A stretch of DNA of 64,000 nucleotides from Escherichia phage phiEco32. Positions 34,500-35,813 of this stretch are shown one piece after another. The translations under genes and the position numbers were made by a program. Below the pieces are notes generated by a model that was not told the origin of the DNA, did no database searches, and saw only the letters and a program-made list of their open reading frames with translations. The stretch lies in sequence record NC_010324.1; one strand, written 5' to 3'. Within the stretch, counting starts at the first letter, position 1, and every line of letters starts with the position of its first letter.

Positions 34500-35813
34500 T
34501 TAGTTATTTTCGTCTATTTCAAAAGAGATTCCACGACCCGCTTCATCGGCAAACCGAACTGTACGGGTTTGAGGTTCTAATACTTCAGGGTTGTTGGCAA
34601 TAAAGCGATCAGCGAGATTATCTACCACATCTTGGGCCACACCTTCATCAGTCCACACAGCCCTAACAGGTGCGTTGATATCACCAACAGCAAAACCCTG
34701 ACCAGAGAACTGGTGACGGCTAACAGTCAAACCGTTTGGTCGACCACGAGAAGGACTAGCCATCCATCGCTCCATAGAATCACTTGTAATACCCCAAGCT
34801 TCTTCAAAAGATGTTCTACGAGTAGGGCTTACTCTTCGTGACTCTTGTGCTCTACGCATTGCAGGGGCTACAAACACCCCTTCAATTGCATTATGTCGGT
34901 TAGGTTCCTCTTCTCGACCAAGCAGATCACCACCCGTGTTAGTTGTTAAATTTGTCAACCCTTCAGACCAATACGCATGAATCTGACCAGAACCGTGAAG
35001 ACTAGACATAATCTGAATCTCTTCATAAGGGATTCCAAAGAATCGACTCATGTCTCGGTCAACACAATACGAGGGACTTGTCGTATCCTCAGCATAAGTA
35101 ACCTGACCCCGTTCATCAACCAGATGATTAATCGGTTGAGGTGTAGGGAGGTACCGAGAGTGGGCCATATATTGGAGCGCAGCGGATGTAGAGGAGAATC
35201 TCAACACCTGTGAATTAGGCCACTTCTTATGAACATACTTAATTTCACGAGCAGAGACAACTACTGGACAAGGAGAAGTCATAGACAGATATCCATGAGG
35301 GGTCATAAATAGATTGTCAAGAGTCATCGCACCACGGCACATCATAGGAAAATTATCCATAACCTCTTCAATAGAAGTAGGATAATTAAACATGAATTGG
35401 ATTCGAACCCCATTCCACTGAAATTCAATAATATCAGTGAATGTTAACAAAGAGCCTTCAGCGTAGGCTTCATTTGTGGCTTCAGCCAGAAGGGAAGAGT
35501 ACTCAATATCTTGAGACTCAAGCCACTCTTTCACGTTACTTTCAACCTCTCGTCCGAGATCTTGCCACTGGTCATGGCGGATAAAGGTATCTCGAGTTCT
35601 TGGTGCCTGTCCTCTGACAATAAAGATATCAATGTCATGAGGTGCTCTATTATTAAGAACAGCATCACGAACAGCCCCACCAGTGATGATGGGACAAATA
35701 CAGTCTGGAATCAAGTTGTTGTTAATCAACTGTTCAATGAAGTGACGACCAACAGTGATATCAGGTTGTTGAGCAACCTTATCTTCAATTCGGTTAATCG
35801 GGATAACAATCAT
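34500..35813 (-). CDS. Pol-beta-type nucleotidyltransferase with CCA-adding/poly(A)-polymerase-like head motif
   Basis: Start set to ATG 35813 (MIVIPIN...), 1 nt after the exonuclease stop. Head-domain motif ITGGAVRDAVL...HDIDIFIV (GGxVRD...DxD). Confidence 0.5.
   Translation of the reverse strand: MIVIPINRIEDKVAQQPDITVGRHFIEQLINNNLIPDCICPIITGGAVRDAVLNNRAPHDIDIFIVRGQAPRTRDTFIRHDQWQDLGREVESNVKEWLESQDIEYSSLLAEATNEAYAEGSLLTFTDIIEFQWNGVRIQFMFNYPTSIEEVMDNFPMMCRGAMTLDNLFMTPHGYLSMTSPCPVVVSAREIKYVHKKWPNSQVLRFSSTSAALQYMAHSRYLPTPQPINHLVDERGQVTYAEDTTSPSYCVDRDMSRFFGIPYEEIQIMSSLHGSGQIHAYWSEGLTNLTTNTGGDLLGREEEPNRHNAIEGVFVAPAMRRAQESRRVSPTRRTSFEEAWGITSDSMERWMASPSRGRPNGLTVSRHQFSGQGFAVGDINAPVRAVWTDEGVAQDVVDNLADRFIANNPEVLEPQTRTVRFADEAGRGISFEIDENN

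Follow-up and report, generated by a model that had tools for sequence, protein, structure and literature searches.

A putative Gad2-like nucleotidyltransferase encoded in the replication block of Escherichia phage phiEco32

Gad2 (Gabija anti-defence 2) of Bacillus phage SPbetaL7 is a predicted nucleotidyltransferase whose knockout makes the phage sensitive to the Gabija defence system; the protein is toxic when expressed, a Brevibacillus homolog blocks Gabija, and nearly all of the 170 homologs come from phages or prophages (bioRxiv 10.1101/2023.05.01.538930). The class-II nucleotidyltransferases comprise the CCA-adding enzymes and the poly(A) polymerases. Here we analyse a nucleotidyltransferase (NTase) gene of Escherichia phage phiEco32, a prolate, SU10-like E. 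coli podophage of the genus Kuravirus (Gordonclarkvirinae). The window, meaning the whole stretch of DNA analysed, comprises 64,000 nucleotides of sequence record NC_010324.1. We suggest that the NTase is a minimal phage-specific offshoot of the class-II nucleotidyltransferases, in a group that would include small enzymes of T7-like phages and, more distantly, Gad2.

Neither the gene nor its generic label is new, both occurring in GenBank, PHROGs and two papers; the existing database label is 'nucleotidyltransferase', and the SU10 ortholog is gp074. In the searchable literature we found no demonstration that the protein fails the tests for a CCA enzyme, no link to Gad2 or to the small podophage enzymes, and no mention of the Asp-Asp-Gln centre or of the lysine-free tail. 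The widely used labels 'tRNA nucleotidyltransferase', 'poly A polymerase' and 'class II CCA-adding enzyme domain' imply tRNA repair without support from the sequence.

Class-II head and lost class-II features

The NTase gene and its parts, including the motif that binds the nucleoside triphosphate (NTP), are located in the window as follows.

34500..35813 (-): NTase gene, 437 amino acids (aa) plus stop; full-length match to phrog_12715 (residues 1-437, E 1.5e-246)
35169..35813 (-): residues 1-215, catalytic unit (class-II-like head and neck), the only part common to distant homologs
35622..35681 (-): motif A, GGAVRDAVLNNRAPHDIDIF, with the NTP-binding Gly-Gly and the metal-binding D60 and D62
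35376..35441 (-): residues 125-146, beta-hairpin (strands according to DSSP) that holds Q139 (35397..35399)
35331..35354 (-): residues 154-161, NFPMMCRG, replacing class-II motif B (RRD-hTINA); P156 invariant
35217..35249 (-): residues 189-199, REIKYVHKKWP, replacing class-II motif D (EDxxR); Y193 and K197 invariant
34944..35168 (-): residues 216-290, helical extension, confidently modelled and family-specific
34503..34943 (-): residues 291-437, predicted disordered tail (147 aa), indel-rich and Arg-rich, no Lys

The head motif GGAVRD...DIDIF, which had been recognized by the first-pass annotation, is indeed present at residues 45-64. Across 29 homologs, with identity down to 22%, the residues G45, G46, R49, D50, D60, D62 and F64 do not vary (G45-G-A-V-R-D50 ... 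D60-I-D62-I-F64), and beyond this block Y117, I128, Q139, P156, Y193 and K197 are likewise invariant. This invariance in the alignment shows that the match to the motif is more than a coincidence, and no other block is invariant in a joint alignment with the small podophage enzymes described below. When solved structures were searched, the single NTase sequence gave no match and the profile aligned only motif A, over 26 residues, with motif A of a solved CCA enzyme. The AlphaFold model, built with the 29 homologs, is confident for residues 1-290 and has the head-domain fold of the class-II enzymes. All of its nearest solved structures are class-II CCA-, CC- or A-adding enzymes or poly(A) polymerase, with matches spanning only approximately 150-220 residues.

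The head-plus-neck fold and a motif A of the GGxVRD...DxD form are thus what the NTase has in common with the class-II CCA-adding and poly(A) enzymes. In contrast, the match to PF01743 (PolyA_pol head), which extends over positions 3-66 of the 126-position model, scores only 18.8 bits, the cut-off being 23. Our reference alignment of true CCA enzymes consisted of E. coli Cca and seven phage enzymes, and in all eight a Glu is invariant at one position in the hairpin's second strand, and the motifs DL-x-RRD-hTINA and EDPLR are shared as well. In the NTase family this third-carboxylate position is occupied by the invariant Q139 (an NG/VRIQ hairpin, vs. the KG/KAYE type in the CCA enzymes), and the adjacent E130 is not conserved. 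The equivalent of motif B (RRD, ribose recognition) reads N-F-P156. The alignment of the later motifs was transitive, through the small podophage enzymes, and is less certain than that of motif A. No EDxxR string (motif D, the base-selecting template) occurs in residues 1-290 of the translation; the helix where it would be expected reads R-E-I-K-Y-V-H-K-K-W, with low alignment confidence at this point. The charge of the protein was considered as an argument against nucleic acid substrates and dropped, the heads of true CCA enzymes being equally acidic.

Nor does the model contain the body and tail domains that hold tRNA. The earlier impression that the rest of the protein is unlike a canonical body domain therefore holds: residues 291-437 are predicted to be disordered, with a predicted local distance difference test score below 50 except at residues 401-407 (approximately 51). 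Protein length in the family ranges from 274 to 482 aa, and the C-terminal half is variable with many indels. Residues 216-437 (34503..35168) contain 21 Arg and no Lys at all, which at the K/(K+R) ratio of 0.53 found in the other proteins of the window corresponds to a P of approximately 1e-7. The same depletion is seen in the C-terminal parts of 25 out of 25 distant representatives and is absent in CCA enzymes and in Gad2. Base composition was ruled out as its cause, since the guanine-plus-cytosine content is only slightly raised (0.44-0.48). A conserved aromatic or acidic docking tip at the C-terminus, like that of SSB or T7 gp2.5, was also sought; some homologs end in W or F, with no consistent motif. 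Kuravirus alleles are distinguished by an insertion of 16-19 aa at about residue 400 (34600..34640), within the disordered tail; the SU10 protein has 456 aa vs. 437 aa here.

The first-pass assignment to the CCA-adding/poly(A) type stands as far as motif A and the head fold are concerned and fails at the PF01743 cut-off, the third carboxylate, motifs B and D, and the body and tail. The same applies to the structural comparison with CCA enzymes, in which the head and neck match and the remaining domains are missing. The first-pass interpretation is in this sense partly supported, and the NTase can be described as a pared-down relative of CCA-adding enzymes, devoid of the parts for holding and repairing tRNA. 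A function in repairing tRNA 3' ends after damage by host nucleases, or in tailing or polyadenylating RNA, appears unlikely. The class-II form of motif A and the exclusively class-II structural neighbours speak for it, the Arg-rich disordered tail could bind RNA, and GenBank annotators have labelled the gene in this sense since the SU10 paper. Against it stand the sub-threshold Pfam match, the missing RRD and EDxxR, the Gln in place of the third carboxylate, and the lack of a body or tail domain for the tRNA elbow. Furthermore, a tblastn search with E. coli Cca matched 428 phage records; the 30 matches listed come mostly from phages of approximately 85 kb or more, and no Gordonclarkvirinae member is among them. 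Large phages that carry a closer homolog of Gad2 have a true CCA enzyme besides, as in the case of Erwinia phage Hena1 and Klebsiella phage K54_rec5. Finally, the only tRNA of phiEco32 does not depend on CCA addition:

52797..52873 (-): tRNA-Arg(UCU), which ends in G-C-C-A

Its CCA is thus encoded, as had been noted at first pass, and no functional link between this tRNA and the NTase was found.

Phage-only relatives: small podophage enzymes and Gad2

The NTase family is narrow, with 31 representatives (50% clustering) among 1.84 billion proteins. Its closest relatives, by profile and by predicted structure, are the small podophage enzymes of phrog_1614 (175-254 aa), for example phiAS7 gp03, fHe-Kpn01 gp22, VP93 ORF16 and Myduc gp38. 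The match to phrog_1614 has an E of 3.3e-7, the Foldseek match in BFVD 1.4e-6, and hhalign gives 95.9% with E 5e-9. When the joint alignment was used as a search profile, the gain was limited to four bridging proteins (P0086-P0089), and homologs from cells were not found. The NCBIfam and PADLOC scans returned no meaningful match. Like the NTase, the small enzymes have a helical insertion past the DxD strand, a conserved Tyr loop and F-D or F-P in place of RRD, and they are encoded beside replication genes. Unlike the NTase, they have no long tail and their distribution is patchy; in Autographiviridae it is also host-linked (PMC7693777). The third-carboxylate position is Asp (V-D-V) in all six small enzymes of the joint alignment vs. 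Gln in the NTase family. Toxicity in E. coli has been described for one protein of the small type, fHe-Kpn01 gp22 (PMC7291057). In five genomes out of five examined the gene lies within the replication module, in the following orders.

phiAS7: ligase - NTase - DNA polymerase
phi80-18: ligase - hypothetical protein - NTase - DNA polymerase
KMI5: DNA polymerase - NTase
VP93: DNA polymerase - ORF15 - NTase
Myduc: NTase - primase/helicase - DNA polymerase

For the comparison with Gad2 we used the SPbetaL7 protein (400 aa) and a 12-sequence alignment of N-terminal domains from diverse phages. Family alignments were needed, because with a single sequence (E. coli Cca or Gad2) as the counterpart of the family, hhalign aligned motif A only. 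The resulting comparisons were as follows.

Kuravirus family vs. Gad2: 93.6%, E 2.1e-7, 161 columns
Small enzymes vs. Gad2: 94.1%, E 1.3e-7
Kuravirus family vs. CCA enzymes: 85.9%, E 5.3e-6
Gad2 vs. CCA enzymes: 49.7%, E 1.7e-4

When the hidden Markov model (HMM) of the family was used, the best named match outside the family was SPbetaL7 Gad2 (22.6 bits), and the best CCA enzyme scored 16.7 bits. Most of the kuravirus homologs carry the precomputed Pfam family PF26128 ('Gad2'), as do the four bridging proteins and one of the small enzymes, from an Aeromonas phage; the match on a 94%-identical homolog is flagged as weak, and scans with a local Pfam copy gave no PF26128 match. On these alignments the NTase seems nearer to two phage-only groups, the small podophage enzymes and Gad2, than to true CCA enzymes, and its link to Gad2 is to be regarded as distant homology and not as close membership.

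Both the NTase and Gad2 are phage-restricted and consist of an N-terminal nucleotidyltransferase domain of approximately 200 aa, with Gly-Gly and DxD, followed by a variable C-terminal half. The Gad2 motifs LKLQMI ... TFDFTVCMGA ... PIVSLLRVQKYTDKEY have their counterparts in the NTase motifs VRIQFM ... NFPMMCRGA ... PVVVSAREIKYVHKKW. Common to the two are a Gln at the third-carboxylate position (LKLQMI vs. VRIQFM), F-[PD]-x-x-C-x-G-A in the place of RRD, and R-x-x-K-Y-x-x-K-x-[WY] in the place of EDxxR, where REIKYVHKKWP matches RVQKYTDKEY of Gad2. Within the Gad2 family, Gln occupies the third-carboxylate position in nine of the 12 sequences, including the validated Gad2, and Glu in the other three. 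Unlike the NTase, Gad2 has no VRD after the Gly-Gly, and its C-terminal half, which is rich in Lys, bears no relation to the Lys-free disordered tail. The genomic settings also differ: SPbetaL7 is a temperate Bacillus phage that carries its Gad2 gene within an anti-defence locus, and the NTase gene belongs to a replication operon.

Closer homologs of Gad2 (approximately 40% identity over the N-terminal 196 aa) were detected in 207 phage records, among them phages of E. coli, Klebsiella and Salmonella as well as jumbo phages, and nearly all of the homologs are annotated as hypothetical, for instance in Escherichia phage 18-1-2 (2974..4311). A close-relative scan for Gad2 in viral contigs recovered near-identical proteins only.

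Proposed counter-defence function and alternatives

Tentatively, we take the NTase to be an enzymatic Gad2-like counter-defence factor, a prediction that in our estimate falls a little short of an even chance. It is suggested by the pattern of homology, the restriction to phages, the toxicity of relatives, fast evolution, and the phages that carry both a Gad2 homolog and a true CCA enzyme. The NTase would then be an accessory enzyme made alongside the replication proteins. Residues 1-215 would bind an NTP via the Gly-Gly loop and two Asp-bound metal ions, and the acceptor of the nucleotide would be something other than a tRNA gripped by body and tail domains. As target we consider a Gabija-type immunity that senses nucleotides or DNA ends most likely, and the disordered Lys-free tail would serve docking and not catalysis. 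Catalytic activity, acceptor and countered defence system are all predicted in this scheme. Gabija protects E. coli from T7 (bioRxiv 10.1101/2023.05.02.539174), and therefore enterobacterial podophages do meet Gabija.

The rate of evolution was compared between the window and SU10 by protein identity and by synonymous (dS) and nonsynonymous (dN) divergence, for the NTase and the replication genes around it.

36366..38156 (-): primase/helicase, with which the conserved block primase/helicase - polymerase exonuclease - NTase - dCTP deaminase begins; protein identity 99.7%, dS 0.092, dN 0.001, dN/dS 0.016
35815..36372 (-): 3'-5' exonuclease subunit of a split family-A DNA polymerase, upstream of the NTase; protein identity 98.9%, dS 0.106, dN 0.005, dN/dS 0.043
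34500..35813 (-): NTase; protein identity 85.1%, dS 0.352, dN 0.059, dN/dS 0.168
33957..34490 (-): dCTP deaminase, downstream, beginning 9 bases past the NTase stop; protein identity 98.9%, dS 0.175, dN 0.005, dN/dS 0.028

For residues 1-215 of the NTase, dN/dS is 0.10 and dS 0.52, indicating a deep allele. Because dN/dS of the catalytic domain is this low, the NTase is functional and under purifying selection. Its fast evolution suits a host-interaction gene better than a core part of the replisome.

Several observations weigh against a Gad2-like counter-defence function. The small Gad2 HMM gives the window NTase only 13.6 bits, and the two proteins are approximately 19% identical, with BLASTP E values of 0.001 and 0.17 for two collinear segments. 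Part of the Gad2 signal is superfamily-level, arising from the common Pol-beta head. The C-terminal half of Gad2 (residues ~200-400) has no counterpart in the NTase, and no significant similarity was found past the N-terminal domain. The Gln at the third-carboxylate position makes catalytic competence uncertain. The near-universal presence of the gene at a fixed position looks more like that of a core gene than of a swappable anti-defence gene. The mechanism of Gad2 itself was listed as unknown in a review of February 2026 (PMC12904381), and the defence panel of BASEL does not contain Gabija.

An alternative that we consider about as improbable as tRNA repair is a replication or DNA-modification enzyme acting on phage DNA ends, primers or the pool of deoxynucleoside triphosphates (dNTPs), which might explain the marked restriction resistance of Gordonclarkvirinae. 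In class-II enzymes RRD is the sensor of the ribose 2'-OH, and its loss would permit the use of dNTPs. The NTase gene is tightly packed between those for the polymerase exonuclease and the dCTP deaminase. Nearly every Gordonclarkvirinae genome in the phage collection has it at a fixed site within the replication block, and the gene order is kept in Kuravirus, Suseptimavirus and Bas89 and in a 24%-identical metagenomic representative, which lies on a phage-type contig in the order GGACT - HNH - primase/helicase - polymerase exonuclease - NTase - dCTP deaminase - thioredoxin. The replication-module location of the small relatives in the five genomes above points the same way, and the BASEL authors proposed covalent DNA modification from this gene pair (PMC11990801). 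However, the dN of the NTase is 10 to 50 times that of the adjacent replication genes, and the patchiness of the relatives in Autographiviridae does not suit such a role. The position in the replication block is weak evidence, because T7-like phages commonly embed accessory host-interaction genes in their replication modules (gene map, PMC7693777). A genome with deoxyuridine in place of deoxythymidine is argued against by the phage encoding ThyX, and no modification has been reported.

Less probable still is a non-catalytic nucleotide-binding or scaffold protein, a pseudoenzyme with the nucleotidyltransferase fold. Gln replaces the third catalytic carboxylate in 29/29 family members, the non-catalytic proteins MiD49 and Utp22 are among the structural matches, and the long disordered tail would fit docking. 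On the other hand, the strict invariance of G45, G46, R49, D50, D60 and D62 is difficult to account for unless metal and triphosphate chemistry takes place, and the functional Gad2 has the same Gln. A host-shutoff toxin that adds nucleotides to the ends of host tRNA or other RNA, as MenT and AbiEii do, is equally improbable: the MenT match is far weaker than those to class-II enzymes, neither fold nor profile assigned the NTase to MenT or AbiEii, the PADLOC scan was empty, the phage itself needs translation, and toxicity on overexpression is unspecific.

If the NTase and the small podophage enzymes are true functional relatives of Gad2, they would be tractable E. coli models for the mechanism of Gad2, for which BASEL kuraviruses and T7-like phages would both be suitable. 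Concrete targets for mutagenesis are the Asp-Asp-Gln centre and the segments that stand in for the motifs of sugar and base recognition. The BASEL authors noted a defence resistance of Gordonclarkvirinae that lacks an explanation (PMC11990801), and as a counter-defence factor the NTase would be a testable candidate for its cause. A wider and much more speculative version, which we regard as unlikely, is that the Gad2-like Asp-Asp-Gln enzymes form a distinct catalytic class that blinds DNA-end- or nucleotide-sensing immunity, either through chemical changes to the phage DNA termini or by way of an inhibitor derived from a nucleotide. The enzyme of Gordonclarkvirinae would then have become fixed in the replication operon, tethered by its Lys-free disordered tail, and would add to the unusually broad resistance of these phages to DNA-targeting defences.

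Gene start and neighbouring features

The approximately 10 kb around the NTase gene are 96% identical to phages CHD5UKE1, KM01 and SU10. The ATG of the gene is at 35813, one base past the TAA of the upstream exonuclease-subunit open reading frame (ORF). All 29 aligned homologs start at the ATG Met, which rules out a longer ORF with a GTG start (to 35870) as the gene. Around the NTase, a promoter scan gave matches no more frequent than expected by chance, and a terminator scan gave six, slightly above the mean of 3.4 (standard deviation 1.9) for shuffled sequence. From the tight gene spacing we infer that the NTase is co-transcribed with its neighbours.

The family-A DNA polymerase is split, the 185-aa exonuclease gene (35815..36372, -) being approximately 8 kb away from the ORF of the polymerase domain (25979..27823, -). 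Directly downstream of the dCTP deaminase, at 33341..33956 (-), there are three adjacent ORFs of 69, 69 and 65 aa that look like tandem paralogs; besides their similar length they share a basic motif in the centre, rich in K/R, and each has -YY or -HY at its end. Further downstream in the same strand block, 31187..32994 (-) encodes the ThyX thymidylate synthase, a thioredoxin and a ferritin/Dps-like protein.

At the tRNA-Arg gene, a sequence resembling a ribosome-binding site, AGGAGG, occurs within about 10 bases after the 3' GCCA (52780..52800, -), and the ORF downstream may be translated from the tRNA's own transcript. In Proteus phage Myduc, which belongs to the unrelated lineage Chaseviridae, a single tRNA-Arg is found approximately 1 kb upstream of the small Gad2-like NTase (2452..3998); this pairing may be a coincidence.

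Upstream of the primase/helicase, the region 38376..44152 (-) contains a cluster of genes for a GGACT cyclotransferase, a 397-aa protein, a glutamine amidotransferase-like protein and an Amidoligase_2 protein. The 397-aa ORF has no Pfam match and is annotated as ATP-grasp/RimK-like in SU10. The cluster is possibly a peptide- or metabolite-tagging pathway.

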